From NCBI GenBank assembly GCA_965205975.1, contig OZ242195.1:3072001-3136000 (forward strand): a stretch of 64,000 nucleotides of DNA, written 5' to 3'. Each line of letters begins with the position of its first letter. Position 1 is the stretch's first letter. Positions 1 to 19,616 of this stretch are shown here, piece after piece. Under the pieces are notes generated by a model. That model had not been told where the DNA came from. It saw nothing but the letters and a program-made list of their open reading frames with translations, and ran no database searches. The position numbers were made by a program, and so were the translations under genes. The DNA is from Candidatus Latescibacterota bacterium. GTDB lineage: Bacteria; Latescibacterota; UBA2968.

Positions 1-729
1 ATCCCAGCCCCGTCCACCTTCTTGCTTGTCGAGAAAGGTTGACGACATACTCAAGGGCAACAGAATCTCAAAATCCAGACTTGAATTTAGGGGAGGCGTT
101 TCCACAATGCCCTCTATTTTTACAGGGACCACTGCTTTTTTTGTCGGGTTAAAAGATAAAGACAATTTCGGAGGTGGTTGTATCCATAACACTTGACCTA
201 CTAAATTGCCAATATTGTTGGAAAGCGTCTGAGCGAATGCGCGTGTTATTGCGACTTGCCCTGGACGTGAGAGGAATGTACCATGAATAAGCGGGAATGA
301 AAAAATCTCCACGAAACTCCTATCTACCAACACGACCTTATCTATATCTCTCAGAAAATCTTTGTGAGTACCTACGTGCCAAATTCTCATATCAGGATGG
401 GAAAAGGCACCAAGTATACGGGTTGTGGCCTCGATCTCAGGAATCTCGGCAGACATCGCCGATGCCAATGAAACTGGAAAACTGGTAGGCTCAGCTCCTG
501 TGCCCGCCAGAGGACCCATACCTATTTGTCTGAACTTTGCCTTCCCAGTAATGCGGTATATGCGATGATGGTCTTTGTGGAACTTATCAAAGCTCCAATC
601 ATACAGGACGTAAAGCACGCAAAGATAGGTGCAGGCAATCCCTATCCCCAAACCCAGCAGGTTAATGGCGGCATACGTTTTATATTTGAGAGCATTGCGA
701 AACCAGGTTCGGAAATAATTGAAAAGCAT
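1..729 (-). CDS. FtsX/MacB-type ABC transporter permease, N-terminal part (runs off window); paralog of 2649-5129
   Basis: Manual translation from ATG at 729: MLFNYFRTWFRNALKYKTYAAINLLGLGIGIACTYLCVLYVLYDWSFDKFH..., open to position 1 and collinear with the 826-aa permease; absent from the ORF track because no stop is in the window. Confidence 0.9.
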   Translation of the reverse strand, partial: MLFNYFRTWFRNALKYKTYAAINLLGLGIGIACTYLCVLYVLYDWSFDKFHKDHHRIYRITGKAKFRQIGMGPLAGTGAEPTSFPVSLASAMSAEIPEIEATTRILGAFSHPDMRIWHVGTHKDFLRDIDKVVLVDRSFVEIFSFPLIHGTFLSRPGQVAITRAFAQTLSNNIGNLVGQVLWIQPPPKLSLSFNPTKKAVVPVKIEGIVETPPLNSSLDFEILLPLSMSSTFLDKQEGGRGWD

Positions 730-779
730 TGGTTACCCTTGGCAATCAAGAGACGCTTGATCTCAGCTAACTTTCGCCA

Positions 780-1874
780 TTAGCTGGTAGGGGTTTCAGG
801 AGGGCCAATAAGACGATATACCCTGATCCTACCATTCGTATTCTCGTTATCTGTCGGAGATAAATACCTATATACAAACATCCCATAACAATTAAAAACA
901 TCGTTTACACCCAGTTCGTTTTTTATTTTTTCTGCATAAGGCTCTCCACTCGGATCTGATAGAAGTATCAGAGCTGTGCTATTTGATGAATCATTGAATA
1001 GATATCTGAGCAACATATCTCCCGAAGATAAGAGATGCATGCCGTTCAAGCGGCTGAAATTGTGTATATCACTTGCCAATTCTTTCTGAGTTTTGCTATC
1101 GTCCATTTTAAAGCGAATAAACTTAGGCTGACTCATGGTAATGGGCTTAAGAAAACGTTGTGTTATCAAATCAATTCGCATAACCTTCTCTTCCCAGGGC
1201 AGGACAAAGTGTATGATTTTTCGCGCTTCGTCATAAGCAAGCCCTTGAAAACGCTGCAACATAAAAAATAGGTCCATGTATTGTGCATCACAGACTTTGA
1301 ACTTTACGATATCTTTACCTGTTTCAAGTGAGGTGACGCAAAGCATACCGTTTTTGTCTTTGTCAACGTAAGTATGAATAAAGTTTTGATCTTCAGAAAC
1401 CATCATGCGATTAATGAAACGTCTCTCCGGCAGTTTCAATTGTCCTAAAAATTCACCTTTGATCGAGAATCGAAGAATCTGCCCGGCTCCCGCATCGTAG
1501 ATCAGCATTTGGTCGGTATTCGGTATCATTGTTGGCTCTCGCGGTATCTTGTACTGGCCTTCCATACCCCCTCGGTTGCCGATAGACCACTTGTAGTTAC
1601 CCTCTCTGTCAAAAACTTCGACACTCCTTCTCAAGCCATCTAAAACAATGATATAGTCCTTCACAACTGTGATAGAACTTACTACCCCAAGTCCTGGCCT
1701 CATCTCCGGGAATTCGAGTGTAATCTCGTCAACCAATGAAAGTTGCGTTCCTTGCGCTTGCTTAAGGACGACCTCTTCTTGCTGGTTTTCAACAGCACTT
1801 TTTTCGCAACTTCCAAAGATAAGAAAGAAGAGTGCCATCAATCTCACAGGGGCTAATAACTTTTTTCGATTCAT
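780..1874 (-). CDS. Six-bladed (NHL-like) beta-propeller lipoprotein, module 1
   Basis: Signal peptide with lipobox-like IFGSC; IGNRGGMEGQYKIP blade motif; paralog of 5180-6307. Confidence 0.8.
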   Translation of the reverse strand: MNRKKLLAPVRLMALFFLIFGSCEKSAVENQQEEVVLKQAQGTQLSLVDEITLEFPEMRPGLGVVSSITVVKDYIIVLDGLRRSVEVFDREGNYKWSIGNRGGMEGQYKIPREPTMIPNTDQMLIYDAGAGQILRFSIKGEFLGQLKLPERRFINRMMVSEDQNFIHTYVDKDKNGMLCVTSLETGKDIVKFKVCDAQYMDLFFMLQRFQGLAYDEARKIIHFVLPWEEKVMRIDLITQRFLKPITMSQPKFIRFKMDDSKTQKELASDIHNFSRLNGMHLLSSGDMLLRYLFNDSSNSTALILLSDPSGEPYAEKIKNELGVNDVFNCYGMFVYRYLSPTDNENTNGRIRVYRLIGPPETPTS

Positions 1875-2211: not shown

Positions 2212-2421
2212 CTAGCCGCACGTAATAGTCTCCTCGTCATTATAGAAAATGTGAAGGCAGCTAGTATCGCACGTCACACTTCCCTCACATTGAATACAAT
2301 CAAAGTAATGTGCTCCGTAAGAGTCTGTAAACCAATAATCAAGGCGGCTTCCACTGCCCTCATATCCATAGATACGCGGAGAAGACAGCCGAGACTGCAC
2401 AGGCTTTGTCAAAGTTTTCAT
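2212..2421 (-). CDS. Putative RiPP precursor peptide 1 (69 aa; leader MKTLTKPV...IYGY, 5-Cys core)
   Basis: Strong SD AAGGAGGTGA; leader shared with 6481-6678 while the core is unrelated. Confidence 0.8.
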   Translation of the reverse strand: MKTLTKPVQSRLSSPRIYGYEGSGSRLDYWFTDSYGAHYFDCIQCEGSVTCDTSCLHIFYNDEETITCG

Positions 2422-2453
2422 AGTATCACCTCCTTTCCTTATTGAGTCAAGTT

Positions 2454-2648: not shown

Positions 2649-5129
2649 TCAATCCTCCCGCAGGGCATCTATTGGGCTTGCAGAGGCGACCTTCAGCGCG
2701 TGTACGAAGCCACCTAACAAGGGAAGTAGAATGCCTGCGAAAATCGCCGCTAAAATCGTCCCAACCCCGAATTGAAAGCGGTAGGCAAACATCGAGAGCC
2801 AATCATCCATAAAGAAGTAGGAGAGAGGGAGTGCGATGATGGCAGCTATAAATCCGGGTAGTGCGTAGTTCAGCACAATGCCACTGGCTATTTTGGATGG
2901 CACAGCACCCATGACCCTTCGGATGGCGATTTCCTTTCGCCTGCGCGCCACTGCCAGAGAGATCATGCCCAGAGCACCCATTGACGCGATGAGAACCGTG
3001 CACAGGGCTGCGCCAGAGACGATTTTGCTCCAACTAATTTCTCTGGCATAAAATTTTTGTCTGTCATCTTCTACGAAGGAGAACCGCAACAACCCATTGA
3101 TTTTCTGGTCTTTCCAAAGCTGTTCGAGATACGGGACAAATTCATCTGCACGGCCTTCTTCGATACGAACCAATATCTCTCCTAAGCTGGCTCGTTGCAA
3201 AGTCGCATCCGTACCAACGGTGATGATGGTCGGCGCAACCGTGTGGCTCAAGTCTCTAACGTGAAAATCTTTTACCACACCCACAATGCGTCCACTGACA
3301 TCACTCCCAAACACTCGTGATCTTAACTTTTTTTCTGCTGGGCTGATCACCTCTCCAAGAGGCTCTGAAGACGTTAAGTGCTTTAGGAAGGCTTCATTCA
3401 CGATTACATCGCCAGGGATAGGGTTTGGGTATAGCGACTTTCCGTGTAAGAGTTGCAACCCAACGGTATCGAGAAAAGGCCCATCCACTTGATAATAGGT
3501 GACCTCATCAATGAGTTTGCCACTGCTGTCTTTCATCAAAACTGTGTTTGACCATCCGAAGGGCAGATTCGTCCGCACATAGAAGGTCACGAGTGGAGAG
3601 GCTGATAAAGATGCCTGCAGGCGGTTGATCTCATTTTTTTTCAAGCCATCAGTATTGAGTTTGACGAGGTTCGTCGGGTCAAAACCTGGATACGTGGTGA
3701 GGATAAAAAAAGTCTGTTCAAAGATAATAATGGTGCAAAACACGAACACCAACGTCACGCCCGATTGGACTGCCATCAATACCTTTAAGAAAGGACCAGA
3801 CCTGACAGCTTTTGAGGTCTTGCTCAAAACGCTGATGGCAGATATAGATGACATAAAGGTCACCGGATAAAGGGCTGTTCCTATCCCTATCAGACAAGCT
3901 AATATCAAGAGAATAATTGCGGTCTGAAGGGGTGCCACCGAGGACGTGAGTGGGGTCTGTAAAATACCTTCAAGGGGGGGTGATGCTAACTCTGCAACTG
4001 CCAGGCCTATGATGCAAGCCAAAATGCTGTATCCAAAGCCTTCGACCAATAGCTGGTGCGTGAGGTCCTGGCGGTTCGCGCCGAAGACTTGCCTAATGCC
4101 CAATTCTTTGGTGCGTGAATTGAACCGCGCCACGTAGAGCAACACGTAATTCAGACAAGCGACGGACAAAATTAGGATACTCATACCACCGAGAATATAT
4201 CCATATAAGGGACTGGTGATTCGACTCACACCATACACCCGCTGTCGTATCGATCCAGGATTATGGTGCATATCTGTGATGGGTTGAAGCCTGCTTTTAA
4301 AGGTATCTAAATTCCATAATGAGTTAAGAGAAGCCTGCTTTTGGATCAGTCTCGTAAGTTTTCCATCTAATGCCCCGATATCTGATCCATCTGTCAAACG
4401 GATGTAATGTGAGGATTGAAAGCGCCAGTCCCAATCTCCTTCTTCCCTGTCGAGAAAGGTTGCAGACATACTCAATGGCAAAAGTATCTCAAAATCCAGG
4501 CTCGAATTGCGGGGAGGCGTTTCCACAATACCCCCTATTTCAATAGGGGCTACTATAGGTTCCAGGTCTTTAAAGAGACTATGAGAAAATCGCAGCCATA
4601 AGACTTTGCCAATCAAACTGTCAGTATCATTGGCCAGTGTTCGAGCGAATCTGCGCGTGATCACGACTTGCTCTGGTCGAGCCAAGAAAGTTCCGCGGAT
4701 AAGCGGAAAAGAGAACATCTCCTCAAAACTTCTATCGACGAACAGTACCTTTTTGATAGGGCGCAGAAAATTTCTGTGGGTACCCACATCCCAATTCGCA
4801 AGGTCACTCGTTACGCGGGTCGTAAGTTCAATCTCTGGAAACTCGGCAGACATCATGGGTGATAGTGCAACAGGAAAAGACATTGTCTCAGTCCCTGTCC
4901 CTGCTTTAGGAGAGCTTCCTATTGTTTCGCTGTACTTTACCTTTCCTGCAACGCGATAGATGCGCTGATGGTTTTCGTGAAATCTATCAAAGCTCCAATC
5001 GTACAGGATGTATAACACACAGAGATAGCAACACGCGATCCCGATTCCCAAACCCAGCAGATTAATCGTTGCATAAGCTCTATACTTGAGGATATTGCGA
5101 AACCATGTTCGGAAATAATTGAAAAGCAT
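2649..5129 (-). CDS. FtsX/MacB-type ABC transporter permease (two periplasmic plus two FtsX domains, no ATPase)
   Basis: INLLGLGIGIAC, RTKELGIRQVFGA, RRKEIAIRRVMGA, PIDALRED motifs; 826 aa. Confidence 0.9.
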   Translation of the reverse strand: MLFNYFRTWFRNILKYRAYATINLLGLGIGIACCYLCVLYILYDWSFDRFHENHQRIYRVAGKVKYSETIGSSPKAGTGTETMSFPVALSPMMSAEFPEIELTTRVTSDLANWDVGTHRNFLRPIKKVLFVDRSFEEMFSFPLIRGTFLARPEQVVITRRFARTLANDTDSLIGKVLWLRFSHSLFKDLEPIVAPIEIGGIVETPPRNSSLDFEILLPLSMSATFLDREEGDWDWRFQSSHYIRLTDGSDIGALDGKLTRLIQKQASLNSLWNLDTFKSRLQPITDMHHNPGSIRQRVYGVSRITSPLYGYILGGMSILILSVACLNYVLLYVARFNSRTKELGIRQVFGANRQDLTHQLLVEGFGYSILACIIGLAVAELASPPLEGILQTPLTSSVAPLQTAIILLILACLIGIGTALYPVTFMSSISAISVLSKTSKAVRSGPFLKVLMAVQSGVTLVFVFCTIIIFEQTFFILTTYPGFDPTNLVKLNTDGLKKNEINRLQASLSASPLVTFYVRTNLPFGWSNTVLMKDSSGKLIDEVTYYQVDGPFLDTVGLQLLHGKSLYPNPIPGDVIVNEAFLKHLTSSEPLGEVISPAEKKLRSRVFGSDVSGRIVGVVKDFHVRDLSHTVAPTIITVGTDATLQRASLGEILVRIEEGRADEFVPYLEQLWKDQKINGLLRFSFVEDDRQKFYAREISWSKIVSGAALCTVLIASMGALGMISLAVARRRKEIAIRRVMGAVPSKIASGIVLNYALPGFIAAIIALPLSYFFMDDWLSMFAYRFQFGVGTILAAIFAGILLPLLGGFVHALKVASASPIDALRED

Positions 5130-5179: not shown

Positions 5180-6307
5180 CTATTCGGCAGGGTTTGCAGG
5201 AGCATCAATAAGACGATAAACACGGATATTACCATTCGTATCCTCGTTATCAGAAGGAGGCGAGTACTTATAAACAAGCCTGCCTTGACAAGTAAAAATA
5301 TTTCGTTCCAATTCATTGTTTACTTCTTGTGCAGAAGGTTGCACGCTCAGGTCTGATAGAAGTATAAGCGCGGTACTATTTGAGGGATCCCTAAAATCGT
5401 ACCTGAACAAAATATCTCCCGAAGGGAGGAGATGCATTCCGCTTAATCTACTAAACTTACCAAAGTTAGGTGGAGGGGAGAATAATCCTGTTTTATCATC
5501 ATCTAATTTGAGACTGACGAATTTGGGATGATTTGTGGTTATAGGGGGGAGAAAATCTCGTGTCGCCAGATCAATTCTCATCACTTTATCTTCCCAAGAT
5601 AGGGCAAAATATATGATTTCTCGCGCCTCATCATAAGCAAAGCCGTGAGAACGCTGGAACATAAAAAAAGCCCTCTCGTATTGAGCCTCGCAGACTTTGA
5701 ACTTTGCAAGGTCTTCACCCGTATCAAGGGAGGTAACGTAAAGCATACCGTTTCCTTTTCGGTCACCATAAGGATAAATGAGCTTGCGATCTTCAGAAAC
5801 CACCAGGGGATTAATAAGGCGTCGTTGGGGCAGTTTTAATCGTCCTAAAAATTCACCTTGAACGGAGAAGCGAAGCGTCTGCCCAGTCCCGCCATCGTAG
5901 ATCAGCATTTGTTCGGTATTCGGTATCATCGTTGGCTTGCTCGGTGATTTGTACTGGCCTTCTCCCTCTCCTCGACTGCCAATAGGCCACTTATAGTTGC
6001 CTGCTCTGTCAAAAACTTCGACACAACTTCTTAGAACATCAAAAATAATGATGTAGTCATCCATCACCGCAATTGAGCTTACCATCCCAAGTGCGGGACC
6101 TGTCTCTGGACGTTCGAGTGTAATGCCATCAATTAAAGATAGATGAGCCCCTTGTGTTTGCACTTTGAGGACGATGACATCTTGTCGCGATTGAAAACTC
6201 GCCATCCCATCTTGCTGGTTTTCAACCGCACTTTTTCCGCAACTCCCGCAGATCAGACACAGAAGTGTCAGCCCCCCTACTTGAACCCATAGCTTGTTGC
6301 GAGTCAT
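5180..6307 (-). CDS. Six-bladed (NHL-like) beta-propeller lipoprotein, module 2
   Basis: Lipobox-like ICGSC; IGSRGEGEGQYKSP motif; paralog of 780-1874. Confidence 0.8.
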   Translation of the reverse strand: MTRNKLWVQVGGLTLLCLICGSCGKSAVENQQDGMASFQSRQDVIVLKVQTQGAHLSLIDGITLERPETGPALGMVSSIAVMDDYIIIFDVLRSCVEVFDRAGNYKWPIGSRGEGEGQYKSPSKPTMIPNTEQMLIYDGGTGQTLRFSVQGEFLGRLKLPQRRLINPLVVSEDRKLIYPYGDRKGNGMLYVTSLDTGEDLAKFKVCEAQYERAFFMFQRSHGFAYDEAREIIYFALSWEDKVMRIDLATRDFLPPITTNHPKFVSLKLDDDKTGLFSPPPNFGKFSRLSGMHLLPSGDILFRYDFRDPSNSTALILLSDLSVQPSAQEVNNELERNIFTCQGRLVYKYSPPSDNEDTNGNIRVYRLIDAPANPAE

Positions 6308-6480: not shown

Positions 6481-6678
6481 TTATCCCCAAGACCGAGCAC
6501 CAGGAGGAAAGCACTGCAAAACGGAACGCCAAACGAACTGGCACTCATACAAATCAACAGGGTTTCCATCTACAACGCCATCTCCAACGTCTACCCAGGC
6601 AAGTCCAACTCCAAACTCGTATCCATATATAGGCGACGCCATATTCTGAATCTTCACTGGTTTGGTCAATGTTTTCAT
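6481..6678 (-). CDS. Putative RiPP precursor peptide 2 (65 aa; leader MKTLTKPV...IYGY, 2-Cys core)
   Basis: SD AAGGAGGTGA; shared leader with 2212-2421. Confidence 0.8.
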   Translation of the reverse strand: MKTLTKPVKIQNMASPIYGYEFGVGLAWVDVGDGVVDGNPVDLYECQFVWRSVLQCFPPGARSWG

Positions 6679-6766: not shown

Positions 6767-7489
6767 TCAATAAATAAATGTAGATAAAGGATCTATATCA
6801 AAATCTTTGGCAATAATTTGAGAATAGGGCACTCCTTTAAGATGATCGTTCAGAAGTGGTTTTTGCAATCGCAAATGTCTTTGAATCACACCAAAAAAGA
6901 GGACTGTATTTTGAGGGCGATCTTTTGAGGATAGATGACAATGCGTTATGATATTCTTTTCATTGACAACAAAGATAGCCGGGGTGCGATGAGTAAGCAT
7001 TTCATTTTGGAATAGCATGTTCTCCGTATCCGGAAGCAACTCGTAATGGAGGTTAAAACTCCTTTTGTATCTTTTTAACACGCCCGCAGGAGCATTGGCA
7101 AAAGCATAAATTGGAAAGCGTTTTGAGGGATCCTGATTTTGGTACACATGCTCCAGTAACTTTATCTGGGTGATTAGACATGGCTGACAGTCTTGTGGGC
7201 TGAAGACCAGAACCAGTCCTTTTCCTGTTTCGGAAAAGTCTGTTGAAATCCAGTCGCCATTTATGTTCTTCAATTCCAACTTCGGAAATTCCTGTCCTTG
7301 ATAATTGGATGCGTAGGTAGAGGCATTTATATGCTCTTTGTAATCGGCATTCTCTATTCGGAGTTCTCTGATTGTTTTCCAATGACCAGAGTTCGTATTT
7401 CTCAATTTCCATATCCCGAATAACGCAACCAGAAGAAGAACAGATAACAGGATATTCAAAATCAGCGACATTTTCCGAATTTCTTGCAT
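6767..7489 (-). CDS. Membrane-anchored redoxin/AhpC-TSA (thioredoxin-fold) protein
   Basis: N-terminal TM helix; FPKLELKNING, VFSPQDCQPC (CxxC), TPAIFVVN cis-Pro motif. Confidence 0.75.
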   Translation of the reverse strand: MQEIRKMSLILNILLSVLLLVALFGIWKLRNTNSGHWKTIRELRIENADYKEHINASTYASNYQGQEFPKLELKNINGDWISTDFSETGKGLVLVFSPQDCQPCLITQIKLLEHVYQNQDPSKRFPIYAFANAPAGVLKRYKRSFNLHYELLPDTENMLFQNEMLTHRTPAIFVVNEKNIITHCHLSSKDRPQNTVLFFGVIQRHLRLQKPLLNDHLKGVPYSQIIAKDFDIDPLSTFIY

Positions 7490-9568: not shown

Positions 9569-9862
9569 CTATTCGGGAATAAGTGAATGTGTATCAGTGG
9601 CTAATTTCTCATATATATACTTCGCGACCGAATGTGTCGAAGTTAGCATTTCTTCTGTGAGTTCTTCGTCCTCTACGATCACATCAAATGCATCCTCTAA
9701 GCCTGTCACCAGGGCCAGGGTAGAAATAGAGTCGAGTATAGAATTCAAAGGAAGATTGTCCCAATCTATATCATCGGATGTGACTTCACGGTCTAATGCC
9801 TTCAGAACCAAATCTTGAATCTGATTCTCAATCTCAGATATTGTTATTGTATTTTTTGTCAT
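9569..9862 (-). CDS. Acyl carrier protein
   Basis: Acidic 97 aa; LDSISTLALVTGLEDAFDV phosphopantetheine-site motif. Confidence 0.8.
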   Translation of the reverse strand: MTKNTITISEIENQIQDLVLKALDREVTSDDIDWDNLPLNSILDSISTLALVTGLEDAFDVIVEDEELTEEMLTSTHSVAKYIYEKLATDTHSLIPE

Positions 9863-9889: not shown

Positions 9890-9918
9890 TTGACAATCTA
9901 CCCCTCAAAAGATACCTT
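9890..9918 (+). promoter_or_regulatory. Sigma70-type promoter TTGACA-N17-TACCTT for the antisense structured RNA
   Basis: TTGACA 9890-9895, 17-bp spacer, TACCTT 9913-9918; the repeat begins about 7 nt later. Confidence 0.55.
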
Positions 9919-9924
9919 ACTATC

Positions 9925-10008
9925 AAGCTCACATTCCCAAATGCTTGAGCTTTGAACTGCAGTCTGCCGCCGACACTCGACTTGCCAGGGTCTGTCGGCG
10001 GCTTTTTT
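9925..10008 (+). ncRNA. Putative small structured RNA, copy 2 (about 84 nt, ends in intrinsic terminator)
   Basis: Hairpin AAGCTCA-CATT..AATG-CT-TGAGCTT, then GCCGCCGACA...TGTCGGCGGC-TTTTTT; duplicated at 2502-2613. Confidence 0.5.
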
Positions 10009-11516: not shown

Positions 11517-12518
11517 CTACTTGGTGAATTTCTGTTGTTCAATACAAGAGACTATGACCTCCGTTGTGTCTTCCCACTTTTTATTTTCAGGTTTGACTCG
11601 CGGAACTCTATTGCTAAGATTTGCCAATATTTCTTTAGTCACCTTACCAAGATCAGGGATTATTAATTGTCCACTCTCGACTAATTCTCGGTTTATGCAC
11701 ATTTCCCTTCTTCCAAGATAGATAGTAGGTACTCCTAAGAGAGCCCCTTCCCTTGCAACAGTATCTCCAGTAGTTACCACCAGGGCTGAATAGTAAATCA
11801 GGGAATGGATACTGGGACAAGGTTCAACAACCTTTCGGAAATTGGGGTGTTCAAACTCGAGATTTATTCCCCGTTCAAGGGAGGCTATGATGCTCATTCC
11901 AGTATTTAAAATCGCATTCGTCGCTTGCATAACTTCTTCCTGACCCAGGCGTCGATAGTTCATGCTAATAGGTGCAACATACCTGACGAAAACATACTCT
12001 CCTGGCTGAACGCCATAATCACCTAAAATCTTCGGTTGCGGGACGAATCGGTTCAAGTAAGCCAACTCTTTGAACCCGTTGTATTGAATGATGTTTCTGC
12101 CTGCCACTCCGAGTGCTTCAGGTAAGACAAGTTGATGAGCGAATAAAAGACATGGCCAAAAATTTAGCTTGTATTCGAAGTCGTCATAAAAAATCACAGA
12201 CCGTACGCGACAAAACCGCGAAACTATGCCCGAATAGAATCCACAACTCGCCAAAACATCTGTCTCCATTTCGCATACTATCTTCTTGAGATCAACGACC
12301 CTTTCCCATACCCCAAACATCTTTCTAACACCAGTTCTATGAGCACCCATTACACGAAAGGAACAAGGGAGGTCTGACTCCGCTATGGCAACAAGGTTAC
12401 CTCTTTGCCTGACAACAGCCGACACATCGTGTCTCGCCTTCAACGATTTGATGGCTGAATTAAAAAAATTGAGATGTGCGACGTGAAGAATGTCAAAGAG
12501 AATCTTCAAAGGTAGCAT
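11517..12518 (-). CDS. DUF354-family GT-B glycosyltransferase-like protein
   Basis: ILFDILHVAHLNFF, YNGFKELAYL, GDTVAREGALLGVPTIY motifs. Confidence 0.7.
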   Translation of the reverse strand: MLPLKILFDILHVAHLNFFNSAIKSLKARHDVSAVVRQRGNLVAIAESDLPCSFRVMGAHRTGVRKMFGVWERVVDLKKIVCEMETDVLASCGFYSGIVSRFCRVRSVIFYDDFEYKLNFWPCLLFAHQLVLPEALGVAGRNIIQYNGFKELAYLNRFVPQPKILGDYGVQPGEYVFVRYVAPISMNYRRLGQEEVMQATNAILNTGMSIIASLERGINLEFEHPNFRKVVEPCPSIHSLIYYSALVVTTGDTVAREGALLGVPTIYLGRREMCINRELVESGQLIIPDLGKVTKEILANLSNRVPRVKPENKKWEDTTEVIVSCIEQQKFTK

Positions 12519-12558: not shown

Positions 12559-12792
12559 TTAATAGCCGTCATGTGCAAATACATACACATACCAAGAGGC
12601 CTGTTCTGGTCCTACCCCATTAGGGGGAGCTTCACAACCCCAAATTTTAGCGAGTCGAGTCACTTCTTGCTGGGCTTCCCTCTTAGAATTATAATGCGCC
12701 ACAGTCTTCCAGTTTCTGAAGGAGCGGAACCTGGAACGCCAATATCGCTTTCGCTCGTCGGGATCCATCGTAATTCCAACTCGACAGGCCAT
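12559..12792 (-). CDS. Small hypothetical protein (possible GIY-YIG-like fragment)
   Basis: 77 aa, RVGITMDPDER motif, begins 17 nt after the rSAM stop. Confidence 0.55.
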   Translation of the reverse strand: MACRVGITMDPDERKRYWRSRFRSFRNWKTVAHYNSKREAQQEVTRLAKIWGCEAPPNGVGPEQASWYVYVFAHDGY

Positions 12793-12809: not shown

Positions 12810-14240
12810 TTACGAGGTTATTTCCAGATTATATCGTCGCTGCAACAAAGACGCATCCTCTTCTGCAATCTCCATACACATCTCCATCGCCAGTTCATAG
12901 CGATAACGTGTCTGTTCACAAGCAACAGGGTTGGGGTACATCGGGTCCCCCGTCGTCGTCCGAGCATCCCAAAGACATCCACCACCACACAGATTGCGCG
13001 CCCAGCATGTCTTGCACTCTGGGCGATTATTCACATTGAACTGCGCGTCAAAATGCTGCTGCTTTTCGCGATCAATACCCACAAACACATCACCCATCTT
13101 AAACTCGGGTGCATCGGCCAGACTCGAGCAAAAATAAATTGATCCATCTGCTGCAATAGCCAGATACTGCTTACCACCCAGGCATCCATGACAGGATTTT
13201 GCGCGCGTCAGCAATTTCTGAATCCGCGGATCAAACTCTTCACTCTCTTCACCATTCAGAATAGCTTTGAGCGCACGGCGGCTCCGCCTGTAAATTTGTT
13301 GTTTCAAAACAGGTATGTGTTCTTCCCGAATGGCATAAGGCGCATCGGGGGAGACAACCGCCGGACCGATGAGCGCGTTATCAGTACCCAATGAGCGCAA
13401 ATCATCGGCAATCTCATCCTCATCCATATCATACGCTGTCATAATAGCTTGCAGGTACACGCGCTCAGGTGCCTCAGCAGTCAATTTCTGTACATTCTTT
13501 GCCACGACATCATAAGTACCAGAACCATTGTGAAACTTGCGAATACGGTCCTGTGTCTTACGTCCGCCATCCAGGCTGACTTTAATTTGAAACTTTTCAT
13601 CGATCAAGAACTGCTTCATCTCGTCGGTCAACAGCGTGCCATTGGTCACAATGCCAAAACCAACCTGCACTCCCAGGCACGCGCCCAGAGATTTGGCAAA
13701 TGGGACAAGCTCTCTCATCAATGGAAAATTCAGAAGCGGCTCCCCGCCAAAAAAATCAATCTGGCACCGCCCCAAAGCCTGAGCTTCGGTGATGATCCAG
13801 CGTATCGATTGCTCGGCAACATCGGGTTGCATCAGCATCGCCTTACCGCCATAATCCCCGCCATGTGCAAAGCAATAAGCACACTGAATATTGCATGTAT
13901 GCGAAACGTGCAGCGACACCTGCAAACGATCTGTCTGTGATACCCCACAAGCTGCCACCCCTTCTGTCGTCGGCACCTGGGACACCAGAAGCAATGCACC
14001 ATCCGCAATCAACCCCACCTGTGCCAATTCCTCAATAGCCTCGGCAATTTCCTCTGCCTCGTATTGATCGGCCAACGTCTGGACAACCTGTGAAGCAGAT
14101 AAGCCCTCGCAACATTCTAAAATTGATTTGAAAAGGGGATCCAGTTCAAAAAACAGACCTGTCTCAATCTGATAGACAATCGGCTGATTTTGCTCTTCAG
14201 TTTGAAAAAGATGTATGTCGCATTTCTGAATGCATAGCAT
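12810..14240 (-). CDS. Radical SAM/SPASM peptide maturase with N-terminal RRE (CteB/QhpD-like)
   Basis: CNIQCAYC motif, FFGGEPLLN, SPASM cysteines CHGC...C and CKTC...CGGGC...C; PqqD-like N-terminus; SD GAGGAG favours ATG at 14240 over GTG at 14249. Confidence 0.9.
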   Translation of the reverse strand: MLCIQKCDIHLFQTEEQNQPIVYQIETGLFFELDPLFKSILECCEGLSASQVVQTLADQYEAEEIAEAIEELAQVGLIADGALLLVSQVPTTEGVAACGVSQTDRLQVSLHVSHTCNIQCAYCFAHGGDYGGKAMLMQPDVAEQSIRWIITEAQALGRCQIDFFGGEPLLNFPLMRELVPFAKSLGACLGVQVGFGIVTNGTLLTDEMKQFLIDEKFQIKVSLDGGRKTQDRIRKFHNGSGTYDVVAKNVQKLTAEAPERVYLQAIMTAYDMDEDEIADDLRSLGTDNALIGPAVVSPDAPYAIREEHIPVLKQQIYRRSRRALKAILNGEESEEFDPRIQKLLTRAKSCHGCLGGKQYLAIAADGSIYFCSSLADAPEFKMGDVFVGIDREKQQHFDAQFNVNNRPECKTCWARNLCGGGCLWDARTTTGDPMYPNPVACEQTRYRYELAMEMCMEIAEEDASLLQRRYNLEITS

Positions 14241-14268
14241 GCCAGGCACTCCTCAGAACAGATACAAT

Positions 14269-14445
14269 TTACTCAGGCTGATCAAAATTGTCCCAATCGT
14301 CATCATCAGGGAACGGCATGGGGGGAACAGTAATAGGATAAGGGGTACAGCCAACTTCAAAACTATCCGTCGTCTGATATGTGCTAATACCACCCTCTTT
14401 ATCCATTGTTCCATTGATCAAGATCAACTTGCGTCGAGTCGTCAT
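14269..14445 (-). CDS. Unannotated 58-aa putative rSAM precursor peptide MTTRRKLILINGTMDKEGGISTYQTTDSFEVGCTPYPITVPPMPFPDDDDWDNFDQPE
   Basis: Manual translation; SD AAGGAGG 14451-14457; first gene after the sigma54 promoter and directly upstream of the rSAM gene. Confidence 0.8.
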   Translation of the reverse strand: MTTRRKLILINGTMDKEGGISTYQTTDSFEVGCTPYPITVPPMPFPDDDDWDNFDQPE

Positions 14446-14503: not shown

Positions 14504-14520
14504 CGCAAGATCCGTGCCTA
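14504..14520 (-). promoter_or_regulatory. Sigma54 (-24/-12) promoter TAGGCACGGATCTTGCG
   Basis: GG-N10-GC with GGCACG and TTGC consensus; sigma54 activator gene adjacent. Confidence 0.8.
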
Positions 14521-14535: not shown

Positions 14536-14567
14536 AAAAAAAAGCACTTAAAAACTCTCAAGTGCTT
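14536..14567 (-). terminator. Intrinsic terminator after the activator gene
   Basis: AAGCACTT-N10-AAGTGCTT followed by a T-run on the minus strand. Confidence 0.55.
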
Positions 14568-14758: not shown

Positions 14759-17700
14759 CTATCTCAACCCCAGACGATTCATCTTTCTATACAAGCTGGC
14801 GCGCACCAACCCCAGTTCTTCGGCCGTACGCTTAATATTACCCTCGTATTTTTCGAGCGCATCCATAATCAACCGTTTCTCATACTCCTGCATACTATCT
14901 TTTAAATGTCCCTGGTATTCGACAGAGACACCCGACATCGCGTGGCCGACAGCTTCCGAAAACAAATCGGGCGTAATTGCACCATCTTCTTCTACCAATG
15001 CAACCGCACGCCGAATCTCATTCTCCAACTCGCGCACATTACCCGGCCAGTTGTAATTTGTAAGTGCCCTGATTGCACCTACTGTCAGCCCGCCAACCGA
15101 CTTGTTTGCCTCTTCCTTTGCCCGAATGAGCAAATGTTCGGCCAATAACGGCACATCTTCCATGCGTTCTCGTAAAGGCGGCATATCGATCTGAATCACG
15201 TGCAACCGATAATACAAATCTTCGCGGAAAGAGCCTTTTTCTACTTCTTTTTTTAAGTCTCGATTGGTCGCTGCAATAATGCGTACATCTACTGCGCGAT
15301 CCTCTGTTTCTCCCACACGCCTAATCTCTCCTTCTTGCAACACCCGCAACAAACTCCTTTGCAATGGTGGCGGGGCATCGCCGATTTCATCTAAAAAGAC
15401 CGTACCCCCATTAGCCGTCTCAAAAACCCCCTTATGATCTTCAGTCGCGCCAGTAAACGCCCCTTTTTTATGACCAAACAACTCACTCTGCAACAGCTCT
15501 GGTGAAAGGGCAGCACAATTTTGCGACAAAAAACGCTGGTCTTTACGTGTACTATTGTAGTGTATGGAACGCGCAGCTAATTCTTTGCCAGTACCTGTTT
15601 TGCCTTGCACAAGCACGGGAATATCGCTTTTTGCCGCACGTTCTATAAGCCGGTAGATCGCCTGCATCGCATCACTTTGCCCAAACAGATCGCCAAGCTG
15701 GTGCTGTCTTTCGACCTCTTGCTGCAAATATCGCGCTTTCTCTTCCAATTGTTCGTACATCCTCGCATTGACCAGTGCTACACCCACCAGATTCGCAAAT
15801 GCTTGTAAAAACGTCTGGTCTGCTTCAGAAAATGCGTTGCCTATGCCGCGATGATCCACATATAGGGCACCCATTACACCTTCGCTAACATGAAATAGAG
15901 GCACACACAATACAGACCGAATGTTGTAGTCTATCACACTCTGATATTGATTTAGCCTATCGTCTGTTTGTGCATCAAGGCTCAAAACGGGTTCATTTGT
16001 TTCAATAACCCGACGAATAATACCCCCACTCAATTCTTCTGCATCATTCGATTCTAAATTGTGGTGGCGCACCACATCAACTACAAAGTCTTTTGGAGTC
16101 TCATTTTTAATCGCAACAATCACCCGCTCTGCTGAATAGACAGCCAACAAATTGCCCAAAGTTCCATCCAATAGCACCTTGACATCGTGCTCTGTTGTTA
16201 ATTCCTGGCTCATATCATAGAGCAAATTCCAACGATCAACAGACAACGCACCAACTGGAACCTCAGAACTGGATACGGTATCCTCACCGCGATGGAGCGT
16301 TGGAGCGGCATCCCTGCCGCGACCATCTTCGTCGCGAGATAATTGATTTAATAACACCTGTGTTTTCTCCAAAAAATAGGACATTTCCATTTCCTCAAAC
16401 GCCTGTTTTGCCGCTTCGAGATGTGCTTGCGCTTTTGGCATATCATCGCGCTGGAGATAAAACTCCCCAGCCATCAGCAATGCCCGCGCCCAGTGGTCGC
16501 CTTTGGATTCTCTGCGACATTCAATTGCCTGCTCAAAAGCCTCTTCAGCCTCAGCAATTCGCCCTGCCTGAGCAAAAGCCGCACCAATACCGCAATATAC
16601 CAGGGGCAATATGCCTGTGTACATACCCGATATTTGTTGCGTACCTTCTTTGGCTTTTTCAGCCCATTCAAGTGCTGTTTCACCATTTCCCATTCTCGCA
16701 GCAGCCGTTGCCGCAATTGCATAAGCGCGATAGATATAATCTTTTCGCGGTGTTTCCAAAAATCGCTCTGATGAAATCTCGGCATATTCCAATGCCTCGG
16801 CAAAATCATCGCGTTCCAGAGCCAATTCCCCAAGCCATAGGAAATTTGCTGCTTCCCAATACACACCCCCTCGCTTCTGCCACTCACCAATGACCTCATA
16901 ACAAACGGCTTCAGCACCATTGAAATCCCCCAAATAAAAATAAATTCTTTGAAGTGCATTGAGTGCCCAAACGCGATGGTGCTCTAAACCAAGTTGTCTA
17001 AAGATCTTTACAACAGTTTCTAAATAGCCCTTAGCTGTCTCAAATCGAAATTCCACTAATGCGGCCTGGCCTTCTCGTCCTTGTATAAAAGCCTGGTTTT
17101 GTGGATCTCCCGACTCACGGAGTTTCTCTATTTCCCGACGCATATACGCAATTGATTCTTCGTGCCGACCAGACACATCACACAAATAAGACAAGCTGCT
17201 TAACGCCTGAATTTCGCCATCGAAATCACCGAGTTCACGATAAAGCTGCAATGCCTCCAGCATATATCCTTCTGCAATTTCACCATGTTGAAGTACGCTG
17301 TGAATCTCACCCTGGTCGTTTAAAATACGCGCTTTCAAATCTTTCCGATCAGCGGGCAATAATGCATTTGCTTCGTCTAAAAGTTTTAGTGCGCAATTGT
17401 ATTCACTACAATTGCGAAACACATCTGCATAATCGCACAAAAAATCGATAGCATCTGCAGGTAATTCAAAAACGTCATCCGCTGTCCAGTCCCTCACTGC
17501 CTCGAACCGTCTCAATGCCTGGCGATACGCTTGTACCTCCAATGCTTTTTTACCCGCCAGACACATATATTTCACAGCCTTATCTCGTTCTTCTGCCGCC
17601 GCAAAATGATCCGCCAATTCTTCCGTCAATTCTTCTGCATCACCCGTCTCTTCCAGAGCATTGCCAATTTCTCGATGCAACAGACGCCGCCGCACATCTT

Positions 17701-18841
17701 GCATGCGGTCATAAATTGCACGCCGACACAAATCCTGTGAAAATCGATAGCGGTCTTCATCCTCTCCACAAGCAGCCAAAAGCCCTTCCGCAATCAAGTC
17801 ATCCAGCATATCCAGCAATTCTAACTCATCACCGCGCCAAACTGCAGCCAATAATTCGAAAGAAAAATCACTTAAAAAAACACAGGCGTATTCCAGCACC
17901 CGCTGTTGCATAGCAGGCAGGGTTGCTATGCGCCTGTACAAAACCTCTGAAAAGTCATTGGATAATAATGTTTCGGGAAACTCTCCCCACTGCCAATCGC
18001 CAGACACATCTTGCCGAACCACATCGGCATGCACCAGTGTCCTTATCGCCTCCACGACAAACAGGGGTTGTCCGCCTGTTTCTCTGAACAGGGTTTGCAA
18101 TGCATCCGACGGTATGGATCGCTCCCCTAACATCGACGCCGCTAAATATCCCACCTCTTCTTGTTGTAGATACTCCAACTGCATCTGGGTCGCTTCAGCA
18201 AATTCATTACTATGTATAAAATTCTCAATTTCCTCTGAAAGCGGTTCCAGATTAGACCATCGGCAAGTCAGACATAACAAAAACGGGCACGGTTCTGGAT
18301 CGCGCAACACATACTGCAAAAATTCCAGAGTCAATTCATCAAGCCATTGAATATCTTCCAAACACAACACAATGGGCTGTTTCTGTCGCAGACTTTTTAG
18401 TAACTGCAACCAGCGCTCCATAACAGAAAACTTGTCGGTCTCTAATGAATCGGGCAACTCTGCCATCAAATCCGTCGTCCCTTGAAAAGCCCTGATCAAC
18501 GCACCGTATATTTGTCCGCCCTCTTCCTGCCCTGCGCCCTTCAAACATAGAAAATCGTGGATCAGAGCGTCGCCCAACAGTTCTTCGGCCAGTCTCGATT
18601 TACCTACTCCCGCCTCACCCGAGATCAAAACCACGCGCTGCTTGCCAGCCTGTACATCCTGTAACATCGCACTCAGTATCTTCATTTCAGATTCCCGCCC
18701 GACAAATTGTGGGCGCACAACTTTTCTATGCACATCGCGCTGCTCGTCCTCCAGCAGCACAAGCTCCGATGGTAAGGCACGTACCAGTTCCTCTGCCGAC
18801 TGATAACGATCAACACGCTCCTTTGCCAGCAACTTCAGCAC
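14759..18841 (-). CDS. Multidomain sigma54-dependent activator (P-loop ATPase, TPR, GAF, AAA+ GAFTGA, Fis HTH); C-terminal part of a frameshifted kinase fusion
   Basis: GEAGVGKS, GKTGTGKE, SELFGHKKGAFTGA, WPGNVRELEN, terminal HTH. Confidence 0.9.
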   Translation of the reverse strand: MLKLLAKERVDRYQSAEELVRALPSELVLLEDEQRDVHRKVVRPQFVGRESEMKILSAMLQDVQAGKQRVVLISGEAGVGKSRLAEELLGDALIHDFLCLKGAGQEEGGQIYGALIRAFQGTTDLMAELPDSLETDKFSVMERWLQLLKSLRQKQPIVLCLEDIQWLDELTLEFLQYVLRDPEPCPFLLCLTCRWSNLEPLSEEIENFIHSNEFAEATQMQLEYLQQEEVGYLAASMLGERSIPSDALQTLFRETGGQPLFVVEAIRTLVHADVVRQDVSGDWQWGEFPETLLSNDFSEVLYRRIATLPAMQQRVLEYACVFLSDFSFELLAAVWRGDELELLDMLDDLIAEGLLAACGEDEDRYRFSQDLCRRAIYDRMQDVRRRLLHREIGNALEETGDAEELTEELADHFAAAEERDKAVKYMCLAGKKALEVQAYRQALRRFEAVRDWTADDVFELPADAIDFLCDYADVFRNCSEYNCALKLLDEANALLPADRKDLKARILNDQGEIHSVLQHGEIAEGYMLEALQLYRELGDFDGEIQALSSLSYLCDVSGRHEESIAYMRREIEKLRESGDPQNQAFIQGREGQAALVEFRFETAKGYLETVVKIFRQLGLEHHRVWALNALQRIYFYLGDFNGAEAVCYEVIGEWQKRGGVYWEAANFLWLGELALERDDFAEALEYAEISSERFLETPRKDYIYRAYAIAATAAARMGNGETALEWAEKAKEGTQQISGMYTGILPLVYCGIGAAFAQAGRIAEAEEAFEQAIECRRESKGDHWARALLMAGEFYLQRDDMPKAQAHLEAAKQAFEEMEMSYFLEKTQVLLNQLSRDEDGRGRDAAPTLHRGEDTVSSSEVPVGALSVDRWNLLYDMSQELTTEHDVKVLLDGTLGNLLAVYSAERVIVAIKNETPKDFVVDVVRHHNLESNDAEELSGGIIRRVIETNEPVLSLDAQTDDRLNQYQSVIDYNIRSVLCVPLFHVSEGVMGALYVDHRGIGNAFSEADQTFLQAFANLVGVALVNARMYEQLEEKARYLQQEVERQHQLGDLFGQSDAMQAIYRLIERAAKSDIPVLVQGKTGTGKELAARSIHYNSTRKDQRFLSQNCAALSPELLQSELFGHKKGAFTGATEDHKGVFETANGGTVFLDEIGDAPPPLQRSLLRVLQEGEIRRVGETEDRAVDVRIIAATNRDLKKEVEKGSFREDLYYRLHVIQIDMPPLRERMEDVPLLAEHLLIRAKEEANKSVGGLTVGAIRALTNYNWPGNVRELENEIRRAVALVEEDGAITPDLFSEAVGHAMSGVSVEYQGHLKDSMQEYEKRLIMDALEKYEGNIKRTAEELGLVRASLYRKMNRLGLR

Positions 18842-19616
18842 AATTTGTTGCGTCTCTTCGGGAACAGCGATATTGAACTTCGCCTATTGGTGGAGGTGAC
18901 TCTCGAATATGCTTCATAATAACAGATATGGGATTTTGTCCAGAAAAGGGCGATGCGTCCGTGAGGACTTCGTATAAAATCACACCCAATGAGTACAAAT
19001 CTGACCGATGATCCACCCACAACCCCTTACCCTGCTCTGGCGACATATATTCTGCCGTACCAATCGTTGCACCCGTCTGAGTAATGGAAGCACTGTGCAA
19101 ATGTCTGAATTTCGCCAATCCCAGGTCCAGAATCGTGGTTTCAATCCCCTCTTTTGTCTCCAAAACCATAATATTGGATGGCTTGAGATCGCGATGCACT
19201 GCACCCTGAGCGTGGACATAAGCCAATCCATCGGCAATTTGTTGTATCAAGTCAAAAAAGTGAGACGTCCGGAATTGCTCTAACAGTACACGATCGGCAA
19301 TAATTTTTTCCAATGTCTTTCCGGGCAAATATTCCATTGTAAAATAGGGACGGTCTTTGGCAAAGCCCCAGGTGTATGTGCGAACCAGACGCGGGTGCTG
19401 GAATCGGTTCAACACCTGAAACTCTCTGTGAAAACGACGGCGCACAGCCTGCTCATCCATCATTTCATTCAAAATTTTGAGCGCGCAATCCCGATCTTGC
19501 TCCAGGTCCAAAACCCGATACACTTCACCCATGCCCCCGGCTCCCAGGTGCGCCTGGATCTGGTATCTTTTGTCGAGAATTGTGCCAATTTCGAACATAC
19601 GCGTTATTCTTTGCAA
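18810..19616 (-). CDS. Hanks-type Ser/Thr protein kinase domain, separated from the activator by a 1-nt frameshift near 18876
   Basis: GAGGMGEVY, HRDLKPSN, DLGLA, YMSPEQ, DLYSLG; the kinase C-lobe end (LLAKERVDRYQSA) lies in the other frame. Confidence 0.85.
   Translation of the reverse strand: MQRITRMFEIGTILDKRYQIQAHLGAGGMGEVYRVLDLEQDRDCALKILNEMMDEQAVRRRFHREFQVLNRFQHPRLVRTYTWGFAKDRPYFTMEYLPGKTLEKIIADRVLLEQFRTSHFFDLIQQIADGLAYVHAQGAVHRDLKPSNIMVLETKEGIETTILDLGLAKFRHLHSASITQTGATIGTAEYMSPEQGKGLWVDHRSDLYSLGVILYEVLTDASPFSGQNPISVIMKHIRESPPPIGEVQYRCSRRDATNCAEVAGKGAC

Follow-up and report, generated by a model that had tools for sequence, protein, structure and literature searches.

A 64-kb window of a one-contig Latescibacterota genome (G000, positions C1:3072001-3136000; "the window" is used here for this whole stretch) opens with 19.6 kb of genes of the type that encode ribosomally synthesized and post-translationally modified peptides (RiPPs), with several precursors among them, and the open reading frame (ORF) listing and family scans place all of these genes on the minus strand in the same orientation. 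This stretch is probably not one pathway, and is better described as the recent juxtaposition of two self-sufficient RiPP-type modules together with an optional pair of sugar genes. Module 1 (14269-19616) is taken to consist of a kinase-STAND-GAF enhancer-binding protein, a sigma-54 promoter, the precursor gene pepA and a peptide maturase that combines a RiPP recognition element (RRE), a radical S-adenosylmethionine domain (rSAM) and a SPASM domain; module 2 (1-9862 and a further 1.8 kb to the left of the window) would comprise an acyl carrier protein (ACP), a fusion of an S8 subtilase with a DUF1611 domain, a redoxin and repeated units of peptide, propeller and permease. Each block recurs elsewhere with identical internal order, and the arrangement therefore exceeds chance. 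An original prediction, made from the DNA of the window alone, had described the same genes as a single sigma-54-controlled locus; the order and families that it gave were borne out nearly gene for gene by the ORF listing and profile scans, and its claims of a sigma-54 promoter, of several precursors and of an uncharacterised combination are upheld by promoter conservation, by the leader-bearing peptides and by literature searches, respectively. No characterised counterpart of the S8-DUF1611/ACP chemistry, or of the rSAM/pepA pair, turned up in those searches. Family calls throughout come from Pfam and NCBIfam profile scans, with curated cut-offs where these exist and E<=0.01 for any match, and the comparison set for the phylum consists of 168 Latescibacterota genomes. 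Coordinates are those of the window, and features lie on its minus strand unless stated otherwise.

Evidence for two separable modules

The case for two modules rests first on what surrounds the fusion gene of module 2 in its closest relatives. Nine orthologous loci were compared, the window and L003-L010, with fusion-protein identities of 88-93%, and they share a conserved order of (regulator), ACP, fusion, redoxin, leader peptide, propeller with or without permease, ABC exporter, rhodanese and MauE, from which L003 and L006 lack the permease. Eight of the nine are informative upstream of the ACP gene, and there they diverge: an AraC-type response regulator stands directly before it in four (L004, L007, L008, L010), an NDP-sugar 6-dehydrogenase (UGDH), with or without a DUF354 glycosyltransferase, stands before it in the other four (the window, L003, L009, L005), and an rSAM module is found upstream in two (the window and L009). 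The leader peptides are kept without any rSAM gene in six of the eight. The idea that the module 2 precursors pepB and pepC are rSAM substrates was dropped for the same reason, since orthologous loci keep these peptides in its absence.

The rSAM gene is equally independent when followed from its own side. At E<=1e-40 it yields 54 match rows in 29 of the 168 genomes, and for 6 of the 54 the same contig carries a fusion gene no more than 15 kb away, at distances of 3 kb in G000, 4 kb in G089, 13 kb in G080, 11 kb in G081, 6 kb in G052 and 6.6 kb in G053, so that 48 copies are not near one; G086 and G050 carry the rSAM gene and no fusion gene at E<=1e-50. Two or three rSAM copies per genome are usual in the genus of the window (15 of 20 genomes, G000 not counted), and G000 itself has three, 91-92% identical. 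At one of the two further copies (L110), the kinase-linked enhancer-binding protein, pepA and rSAM have nothing after them but a truncated activator and a UvrD-type helicase. The other (L111, G000:C1:2804000-2823999) has the enhancer-binding protein, pepA, rSAM and the small orf77 described below, and downstream of these a 310-aa protein of no known family, a GT4/GT28 fusion, a GT4 glycosyltransferase, a DUF6861 protein, a CAAX protease and the start of a cNMP-binding exporter with a C39 peptidase domain, so that, by its gene content, it looks like a fuller rSAM pathway with sugar and export genes of its own. Both L110 and L111 are without DUF354, UGDH, ACP and S8 fusion genes. The claim of one locus-wide system is thus not supported, in view of these two modules, of the isolation of most rSAM copies from any fusion gene and of the six orthologous loci in which the rSAM gene is lacking.

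The point at which the two blocks meet in the window can also be located. In G080, about 9 kb of other genes (302-aa, 635-aa and 600-aa proteins, three small ORFs, an AraC-type regulator and a second sugar dehydrogenase) intervene between the rSAM module and the DUF354-UGDH pair, and at the nucleotide level the rSAM module matches the window at 84-86% identity, as against 95% for DUF354-UGDH. Because identity differs in this way on the two sides, the junction at 12519-12558 of the window is a rearrangement, one that removed the AraC-type regulator. The same junction is present in G089 (L009), with an extra 297-aa gene. Chance juxtaposition had been allowed for in the original prediction should the blocks never meet elsewhere; they do meet, in G089 (same order), G080, G081 and G052/G053 (different order), but this does not make a single pathway of them. 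What the genome contigs point to is a real, if loose, recurrent neighbourhood of the rSAM and fusion blocks.

Module 1: regulator, promoter, precursor and maturase

The regulator of module 1 is encoded in two pieces. A Ser/Thr protein kinase domain (18810..19616; Pkinase 156.4 bits) forms the N-terminal part of the gene, and a 1360-aa product (14759..18841) carries the STAND ATPase, TPR and GAF domains, the sigma-54 AAA+ activator domain and a Fis-type helix-turn-helix (HTH) (Sigma54_activat 250.4, AAA_16 88.8, GAF 47.7 and HTH_8 45.8 bits). Kinase and activator are one continuous protein in the paralogs at L110 (1666 aa) and L111 (1605 aa) of the same genome, and alignment with both shows one extra T in the window at ~18875..18876, a +1 frameshift that separates the kinase from the remainder of the protein. 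The order of kinase and enhancer-binding protein given in the original prediction therefore stands, while its two separate genes are one gene interrupted by a single letter.

Between the end of the regulator gene and the promoter there is a terminator-like hairpin (14542..14567) with an 11-pair stem followed by TTTTTTAT. The sigma-54 promoter itself (14505..14518), with the -24 GG and -12 GC elements in GGCACGgatcTTGC, is the sole exact match to GGCAC-N5-TTGC in the 64 kb. Counts of this kind are of little use on their own: the strict form TGGCAC-N5-TTGC has no match in the window, GGCAC-N5-TTGC with at most one mismatch has 12 matches where 15.7 are expected, and a degenerate sigma-54 16-mer with one mismatch has 9 matches where 7.3 are expected, none of them at the peptide. 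The count in the window is by itself no evidence, and support for the promoter comes from its conservation. At rSAM identities of at least 87%, a sigma-54 element (GGCACG-N4-TTGC) stands before pepA in 18 of 18 loci, and at 51-55% it does so in three of four, in a conservation table of 24 rows, some of which are the same place under two locus identifiers. The genome encodes rpoN (420.9 bits, cut-off 277), and the locus has what a regulon of a sigma-54 enhancer-binding protein calls for, namely a regulator with an AAA+ sigma-54 domain and HTH, a -24/-12 promoter and the sigma factor. On these grounds of sequence conservation the sigma-54 promoter is considered real and conserved.

The promoter is followed by pepA (14269..14445), which encodes a 58-aa precursor, has a GGAGG ribosome-binding site and ends 19 nt before the rSAM start. 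In 17 of the 18 close loci the end of pepA lies 17-28 nt upstream of rSAM, and L009 carries an insertion of ~300 nt there. Among 22 aligned homologs, with identities as low as 23%, M1, N11, G12, C33, P44 and P46 are invariant and L7, L9, D15, G18, I20 and P41 nearly so, which yields a pattern of an L-x-L-(I/V)-N-G leader, a single Cys and a Pro-rich core (C-x7-VPPLPFP); the acidic tail DDDDWDDFDQ is limited to the close group. The maturase (12810..14249) has RRE (PqqD-like), radical SAM and SPASM domains, each over its Pfam cut-off (PqqD 27.5, Radical_SAM 57.8 and SPASM 23.5 bits), and the CX3CX2C core is visible in the translation as C-N-I-Q-C-A-Y-C, so that the RRE/SPASM architecture is complete. 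Its best NCBIfam scores all fall under their cut-offs (TIGR03974 SCIFF 266.5 of 425, TIGR03906 QhpD 254.7 of 453, NF047865 PapB 224.5 of 340), as does TIGR04068 (165.8 of 500) and the nif11 rSAM family, which is also among the best matches. A 77-aa ORF (orf77, 12559..12792) travels with the rSAM module, copies of 87-88% identity following rSAM in L009 and L111, and has no family match in the NCBIfam and Pfam scans.

A protein of about 300 residues with no Pfam or NCBIfam match is encoded after rSAM/orf77 in three other loci (L115 9544-10452, L111 7995-8927, L009 6087-6980), and its gene is missing from the window and from L110. The L115 and L111 proteins share a similar N-terminus with an FGSGPS motif; that the L009 copy is of the same family is a guess from size and position.

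Sugar genes

The two sugar genes that lie between the modules encode a putative DUF354 (GT-B-like) glycosyltransferase (11517..12518; PF04007 41.4 bits, cut-off 22) and an NDP-sugar (UDP-glucose-type) 6-dehydrogenase, the UGDH mentioned above (10010..11377; TIGR03026 303.1 bits, cut-off 189.8). Copies of DUF354 with 96% identity occur solely in G080 and G089, in both cases beside the ACP-S8 cluster, and G088 and G076 have paralogs of 38-43% identity that lie 17-21 kb downstream of the orthologous cluster and adjoin other glycosyltransferases, so that the sugar genes may belong to a neighbouring glycan region. With a presence in four of eight loci, the pair would be optional accessory genes of the module 2 neighbourhood.

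Module 2: carrier, fusion enzyme and redoxin

The ACP (9569..9862) scores 17.2 bits with PP-binding, under the cut-off of 20.8, and matches ten ACP models at E<=0.01, TIGR04069 not among them; the same holds for the ACP of L024. The Ser to which phosphopantetheine would be attached, within DS(I/M), is invariant in 49 of 49 aligned ACP cluster-mates. A REP-type intergenic hairpin repeat lies at 9904..10007 (no strand assigned), with a second copy at 2481-2613; the repeats make up direct-repeat families D8 and D10, and the copies are 83-93% identical.

The fusion protein (7633..9534) joins a cytoplasmic S8 subtilase domain (residues 1-260; Peptidase_S8 77.6 bits) to a DUF1611/TIGR04066-like domain (residues 265-633; PF07755 38.7 bits, over the cut-off of 25). 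The best named relative of the S8 domain is QhpE (140.7 bits, cut-off 165), and the match to TIGR04066 (122.9 bits, cut-off 200) covers only profile positions 3-245 of 361. In 16 sequences the catalytic triad D20/H53/S197 and a P-loop-like GTxxQQGKFT loop are invariant. There is neither a signal peptide nor a pro-domain, and because of this, of the invariant triad and of the relationship to QhpE the S8 domain is read as a cytoplasmic leader protease. The predicted model of the C-terminal half (pLDDT 91.9) has its best PDB matches in 2g0t, 7xrj (DgcN) and 2obn (Foldseek probability 1.00, query-length TM-score 0.59-0.71, E 1e-10 to 1e-15), and its more distant fold matches are CoA- or nucleotide-binding enzymes. 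A complex prediction for the fusion protein and pepC scored 0.47, the best of three controls scoring 0.00, in runs that agree in at least 48% of contacts with a partner pLDDT of at least 38, and indicates no interface or leader-binding domain; of 157 solved complexes 116 reach the mark used, as do 2 of 215 mismatched pairs, and at scores of 0.60 or less only 18 of those 157 and both mismatches reach it. The prediction lends weak support to a contact between the two proteins. The third protein, a membrane-anchored redoxin of thioredoxin fold with a CQPC motif (6767..7489; AhpC-TSA 31.8 and Redoxin 28.9 bits), follows the fusion gene in nine of nine orthologous loci.

The fusion gene is widespread. 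The protein collection holds 591 relatives at E<=0.001, and the gene was confirmed at 228 places in genome contigs of Latescibacterota, KSB1, Gemmatimonadota, Ignavibacteriota and Bacteroidota; it is present in 85 of the 168 Latescibacterota genomes, with up to seven matches per genome and three copies in G000. When the ORFs of 77 fusion-gene loci were clustered and representatives annotated, the commonest partner was an ABC exporter that joins transmembrane and nucleotide-binding domains (59 of 77), followed by ACP (47), HlyD (40), a 345-aa protein of no known family (26), redoxin and rhodanese (21 each), DUF5128 propeller and CAAX protease (19 each), the AraC-type response regulator (17), AcrB (16), MauE (14) and BtrH_N/DUF4872 (13, e.g., L048 8638-9696 and L039 14691-15698); the 826-aa permease occurs in 5 of the 77 and an rSAM detectable with the enzyme of the window in 6. 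BtrH is the acyltransferase that moves an ACP-bound group to an amine in butirosin biosynthesis, and the presence of BtrH_N/DUF4872 is, by analogy, a second hint that an ACP-bound group may be transferred to an amine in these systems.

In three Ignavibacteriota/Bacteroidota loci, L024 (Rosettibacter primus strain 4148-Me), L020 and L050, the fusion gene belongs to a fixed set of ABC exporter, HlyD, 133-aa protein, PapB-like rSAM (210 bits), 521-aa protein, fusion, ACP and ANT(6)-like nucleotidyltransferase. L024 comes from the record of a named strain and not from a metagenome-assembled genome, so that experiments may be possible there.

Module 2: precursors and their propeller-permease units

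Two precursors accompany these enzymes, the 65-aa pepB (6481..6678), with a leader of the form MKTLTKPV...IYGYE and a core with two Cys, and the 69-aa pepC (2212..2421), which shares that leader and has a core with six Cys. A motif scan found peptides with the leader M-K-x-L-(T/S)-K-P-...-I-Y-G-Y-E in all eight informative orthologous loci, and variant leaders (...IYAYE, ...VHAYN) stand beside paralogous fusion genes in L039/L069 and L016. The leader had been likened to those of the clostridial CLI_3235 precursors, a likeness for which the profiles offer nothing: none of pepA, pepB and pepC has a match at E<=0.01 in NCBIfam (TIGR04065 included) or in Pfam. Leaders within module 2 are conserved and cores are unalignable except for a Trp and a C-x5-8-C pair. 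The tandem copies of peptide, propeller and permease have 72-82% DNA identity, which rises to 89% over the leader and the region upstream of it, and from the contrast with the unalignable core it follows that the core was replaced or diverged much faster than its flanks.

Both precursor genes are bracketed by inverted-repeat arms of ~30 nt, at 6711-6744 and 6374-6403 for pepB (paired in the minimum-free-energy fold, z = -1.22) and at 2454-2487 and 1941-1972 for pepC (where they close the predicted RNA fold, z = -4.12). The arms recur in L004 and L006-L009, with a match to the upstream arm only in L010, and identical base changes are seen on both arms in L004, L008 and L009; they could be RNA processing or stability stems, or recombination flanks for cassette exchange. 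Sigma-70-like matches (TTGACG/GATATT) just before pepB and pepC were discarded because they overlap the ribosome-binding site. One contig of run X5 joins 2449 to 6755, possibly a version with one unit in a relative, a weak observation in that the shorter side is only 27 letters long.

The first propeller (5180..6307; PF17170 49.1 bits) is a DUF5128 six-bladed NHL-like beta-propeller and probable lipoprotein; its model (pLDDT 83.3) has its best PDB matches in NHL domains and the Bacteroides exported proteins 4raa and 3s9j, and the fold search returned NHL/WD40 look-alikes and those two Bacteroides proteins, with no enzyme match. The second (780..1874; PF17170 43.2 bits) is 62% identical to it. 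The first permease (2649..5129) is an 826-aa duplicated MacB_PCD/FtsX protein of the DarB/ADOP kind (FtsX 82.9 and MacB_PCD 57.8 bits, over the Pfam cut-offs), under the curated cut-offs for ADOP (TIGR03434 191.8 of 622.3) and DarB (NF038008 82.9 of 700). Of the second permease, the N-terminal 243 aa are encoded at 1..729 (ORF listing and left flank), the gene running on for 1.8 kb past the left edge of the window, and it shares 77% identity with the first over residues 237-826 (in L002). A propeller-permease pair of this composition would serve export or producer immunity.

The second of these roles can be taken further, to a reading in which the units are putative toxin-immunity cassettes, the peptide being the weapon and propeller plus permease the immunity of the producer. 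That each peptide has its own diverged propeller and permease while peptide cores cannot be aligned, that the propeller has a ligand-binding fold and that CAAX-protease-type immunity-like genes occur in a quarter of the related loci (19 of 77) would all fit such cassettes, and against them stand the orthologous loci L003 and L006, which do without the permease, and the fact that, among named proteins, the permease is closest to DarB, an exporter subunit. We regard these cassettes as a possibility worth keeping in view, though somewhat unlikely; they account for one part of the locus only and are compatible with the reading of two juxtaposed modules.

State of the locus in this genome

The module pair is damaged in G000. 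Besides the frameshift in the regulator, the array ends 1.8 kb to the left of the window, where the original prediction had suggested looking for further modules. After the second permease comes what is left of an MsbA-like ABC exporter, a 162-aa stump, and directly behind this stump lies a Mutator/IS256-type transposase (L002 16295-18018, G000:C1:3068295-3070018, just left of the window; PF00872 421 bits). Only residues 2-144 of the orthologous exporter are left, at 85% identity, and the remainder is nowhere in G000; the next best exporter in that genome is a 45% paralog ~13 kb past the end of another fusion gene. Neither rhodanese nor MauE is encoded in the 10 kb on the far side of the transposase. 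In this genome, then, the regulator is frameshifted, an IS256-type insertion has truncated the exporter after about residue 144, and both rhodanese and MauE have been lost. The extra T was considered as a plain assembly error, and this was dropped because contigs of run X4 match the window (none of 34.3 depth without the extra T). The extra letter is missing from one contig of run X1, which carries 124.7 of 209.4 depth and may represent a second strain or a paralog.

Damage of this extent raises the alternative that the locus is a decaying remnant that makes nothing in G000, function residing in the paralogous clusters elsewhere in the genome, of which there are two further rSAM modules and two further fusion genes. 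In addition to the frameshift and the exporter stump beside the transposase, the missing companion gene of ~300 residues, present in L009, L111 and G080, speaks for decay. We consider it improbable all the same, since the other ORFs are full length, are 88-96% identical to their orthologs and have no internal stops; the module duplication with its diverged cores looks maintained; an enhancer-binding protein without the kinase could start at the GTG at 18841; the DarB-like permeases could replace the lost export step; and there is the X1 contig without the frameshift. Contigs of the RNA-library run X23 are at least 90% alike to 12484-14454 and to parts of 7629-12289; most are 90-95% alike and therefore derive from relatives, and as contigs alone, with DNA carry-over possible, their depth cannot rank genes.

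Elsewhere in the window, an enolase-like ORF is found at 24474-25763 (ORF listing to 30000), and an Rfam scan of the whole 64 kb gave no matches at gathering thresholds.

Comparison with known systems

The closest described system appears to be the Bacillota cassette of the CcpM/CLI_3235 type, which combines a TIGR04065 precursor, a TIGR04068 rSAM, TIGR04066, the ACP-related TIGR04069, a subtilase and an ABC exporter, as in SacP23 of Paenibacillus polymyxa #23 (PMC10731318). In that study the precursor peptide was expressed, and the roles of TIGR04066 and the ACP-like protein were guessed as 'immunity' and 'modification' (PMC10731318). The genes of the window resemble the cassette in having a DUF1611/TIGR04066-like protein, a small carrier, a subtilisin-type protease, an ABC exporter, Cys-containing precursors and sometimes an rSAM; the subtilase has an invariant S8 triad and the exporter is found in the majority of the 77 fusion-gene loci and is truncated in G000. 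They differ in that protease and DUF1611 form one polypeptide, that the carrier is of ordinary ACP type with no TIGR04069 match, that the precursors do not match TIGR04065, that the rSAM is usually absent or in a separate unit with its own precursor, and that periplasmic redoxin, rhodanese, MauE, propeller and MacB-type permease are added. A check against the four profiles of the cassette found no member, TIGR04066 (122.9 of 200) and TIGR04068 (165.8 of 500) scoring below cut-off and TIGR04065 and TIGR04069 giving no match.

Among systems whose parts have known roles, the closest is maturation of the quinohemoprotein amine dehydrogenase gamma subunit, carried out by the QhpD rSAM, the subtilisin-like protease QhpE and the ABC exporter QhpF, with the AraC-type regulator QhpR. 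By analogy, the cytoplasmic rSAM-SPASM of thioether-forming type, the leader-removing subtilase without pro-peptide, the MsbA-like exporter and the AraC-type regulator would all have counterparts here, and scores come near the Qhp cut-offs without reaching them (QhpE 140.7 of 165, QhpD 254.7 of 453). The genes of the window depart from Qhp in that small, free peptides of hypervariable sequence are the substrates, that the cluster includes an ACP and a DUF1611 fusion, and that rSAM and protease sit in different units; no Qhp dehydrogenase genes are found among the ORFs of window positions 1-30000, the rest of the genome not having been searched.

Individual proteins have further relatives. The maturase is like the SCIFF (TIGR03974) and PapB (NF047865) maturases in its RRE, CX3CX2C radical SAM and SPASM, and unlike them its substrate pepA has one invariant Cys in all 22 homologs and a Pro-rich core in place of six Cys or CX3D repeats, and is controlled by a kinase-fused sigma-54 activator. 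The DUF1611 half has the two-domain fold of the N-acetyltransferase DgcN (7xrj) and of 2g0t and 2obn, with PF07755 over its cut-off; DgcN acts on a free amino acid with acetyl-CoA, as against the protease fusion and ACP partner here, and the predicted model shares that fold at 16-19% identity. The permease resembles the darobactin DarB and ADOP permeases in its size of ~800 aa, its two MacB_PCD/FtsX halves and its place beside a RiPP precursor; it differs in score (82.9 against a cut-off of 700) and in having no adjoining ATPase or membrane-fusion protein in the window. As no curated equivalog cut-off is reached by the rSAM, the fusion protein or the permease, neither module can be filed as a member of a known system.

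Proposed mechanism

These comparisons suggest how each module might work. In module 1, the enhancer-binding protein with its kinase, STAND, TPR and GAF domains would activate the sigma-54 promoter that drives pepA and rSAM; the RRE of the maturase would bind the conserved L-x-L-I-N-G leader of pepA, and the enzyme would then link the invariant Cys to a residue in the Pro/aromatic-rich C-x7-VPPLPFP stretch. A thioether of the sacti- or ranthipeptide kind is proposed because the nearest rSAM families are the SCIFF, QhpD and PapB maturases. In module 2, the cytoplasmic S8 domain would remove the leader of pepB or pepC next to the IYGY motif, and the DgcN-like DUF1611 domain, with holo-ACP replacing CoA, would modify the freed peptide, most likely by N-acylation. 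On the simplest reading, the phosphopantetheine arm of the ACP takes the place of CoA and DUF1611 acylates the amine that the protease has freed, a ligase-type loading reaction being the main alternative. The MsbA-like ABC exporter of the cluster would carry the product out; the membrane redoxin, joined in intact relatives by rhodanese and MauE, would oxidise the conserved Cys pair; and the cognate NHL-propeller lipoprotein and DarB/MacB-like permease would then handle the peptide, in envelope export or self-protection.

Taken to its full extent, this proposal would have protease-DUF1611 and ACP work as a maturase on the principle of 'cut, then acylate', the basis of a new and widespread class of N-acylated ribosomal peptides. 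Precursor cassettes bracketed by inverted repeats would be exchangeable and would co-evolve with their own propeller and permease (for export or immunity). In this lineage the whole set, along with the rSAM peptide and its single Cys, would have come under a sigma-54 switch gated by the kinase, and in a sponge-associated symbiont population one signal would then set free a mixture of peptides that carry different modifications. In this extended form we offer it tentatively, as a picture that is unlikely to be right throughout.

Arguments against separate modules and against the proposed chemistry

Several observations weigh against the separation of the modules or against the roles proposed for them, and they are collected here. 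Neighbourhood of the modules is commoner than chance, the six cases exceeding a rough estimate of ~1 (hand arithmetic; the genomes are related and at most three or four arrangements are independent), with at least three arrangements (G000/G089/G080; G081; G052/G053), and in L039/L069 an rSAM stands directly before a propeller and a leader-bearing peptide; a functional link between the modules may exist. No terminator-like site lies between rSAM and ACP in the window (none from 14249 to 7633), and with the AraC-type regulator also missing, sigma-54 read-through into module 2 is possible. In the window as a whole, terminator-like sites number 19 against 18.4 in shuffles and sigma-70-like sites 41 against 33.4, neither above shuffles. 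Glycosyltransferases also follow the rSAM of L111, so that the sugar genes could serve pepA and not module 2. As for the state of the locus, the frameshift may be a strain variant. On the side of chemistry, the rSAM is under all NCBIfam cut-offs and pepA has one Cys and is not Cys-rich, so that a cross-link other than a thioether is possible; the analysis found no enzyme that would load the ACP; identity between the DUF1611 domain and DgcN with its relatives does not go beyond 16-19%; and, on the predicted model, a ligase-type reaction would suit the DUF1611 fold about as well as acyl transfer.

Some of these points, together with the co-orientation and short gaps of the genes, the position of the sigma-54 promoter as sole recognised input where the AraC-type regulator is absent (the window and L009), the recurrence of the order in G089/L009 and the joining of rSAM, ACP-like protein and subtilase in Firmicute TIGR04066/04068/04069 cassettes (PMC10731318), are what a single sigma-54-controlled pathway would predict, one in which rSAM, glycosyltransferase, ACP/DUF1611 and S8 act jointly on the three precursors and yield cross-linked, glycosylated and acylated peptides that the propeller-permease units export. 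Such a pathway is nevertheless quite improbable, for two of the three rSAM modules of G000 do without its other genes, 48 of the 54 rSAM copies are not near a fusion gene, orthologous ACP/S8 clusters keep their leader peptides without rSAM in six of eight cases and have no glycosyltransferase or UGDH in four of eight, the pepA leader is unrelated to those of pepB and pepC, and the two sides of the junction differ in divergence.

Implications

If the reading of two modules and a sugar-gene pair is right, co-oriented RiPP genes here form a mosaic of mobile sub-modules, and a long 'super-cluster' needs synteny checks before it is read as one pathway. The two modules represent uncharacterised systems of RiPP type in an uncultured phylum. 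Module 1 contributes a Pro-rich precursor family with a single Cys, as well as an unusual regulator that joins a kinase of eukaryote type, a STAND ATPase and a sigma-54 activator in one protein. For module 2, the role of DUF1611 and ACP in these systems, if solved, would define a new peptide modification.

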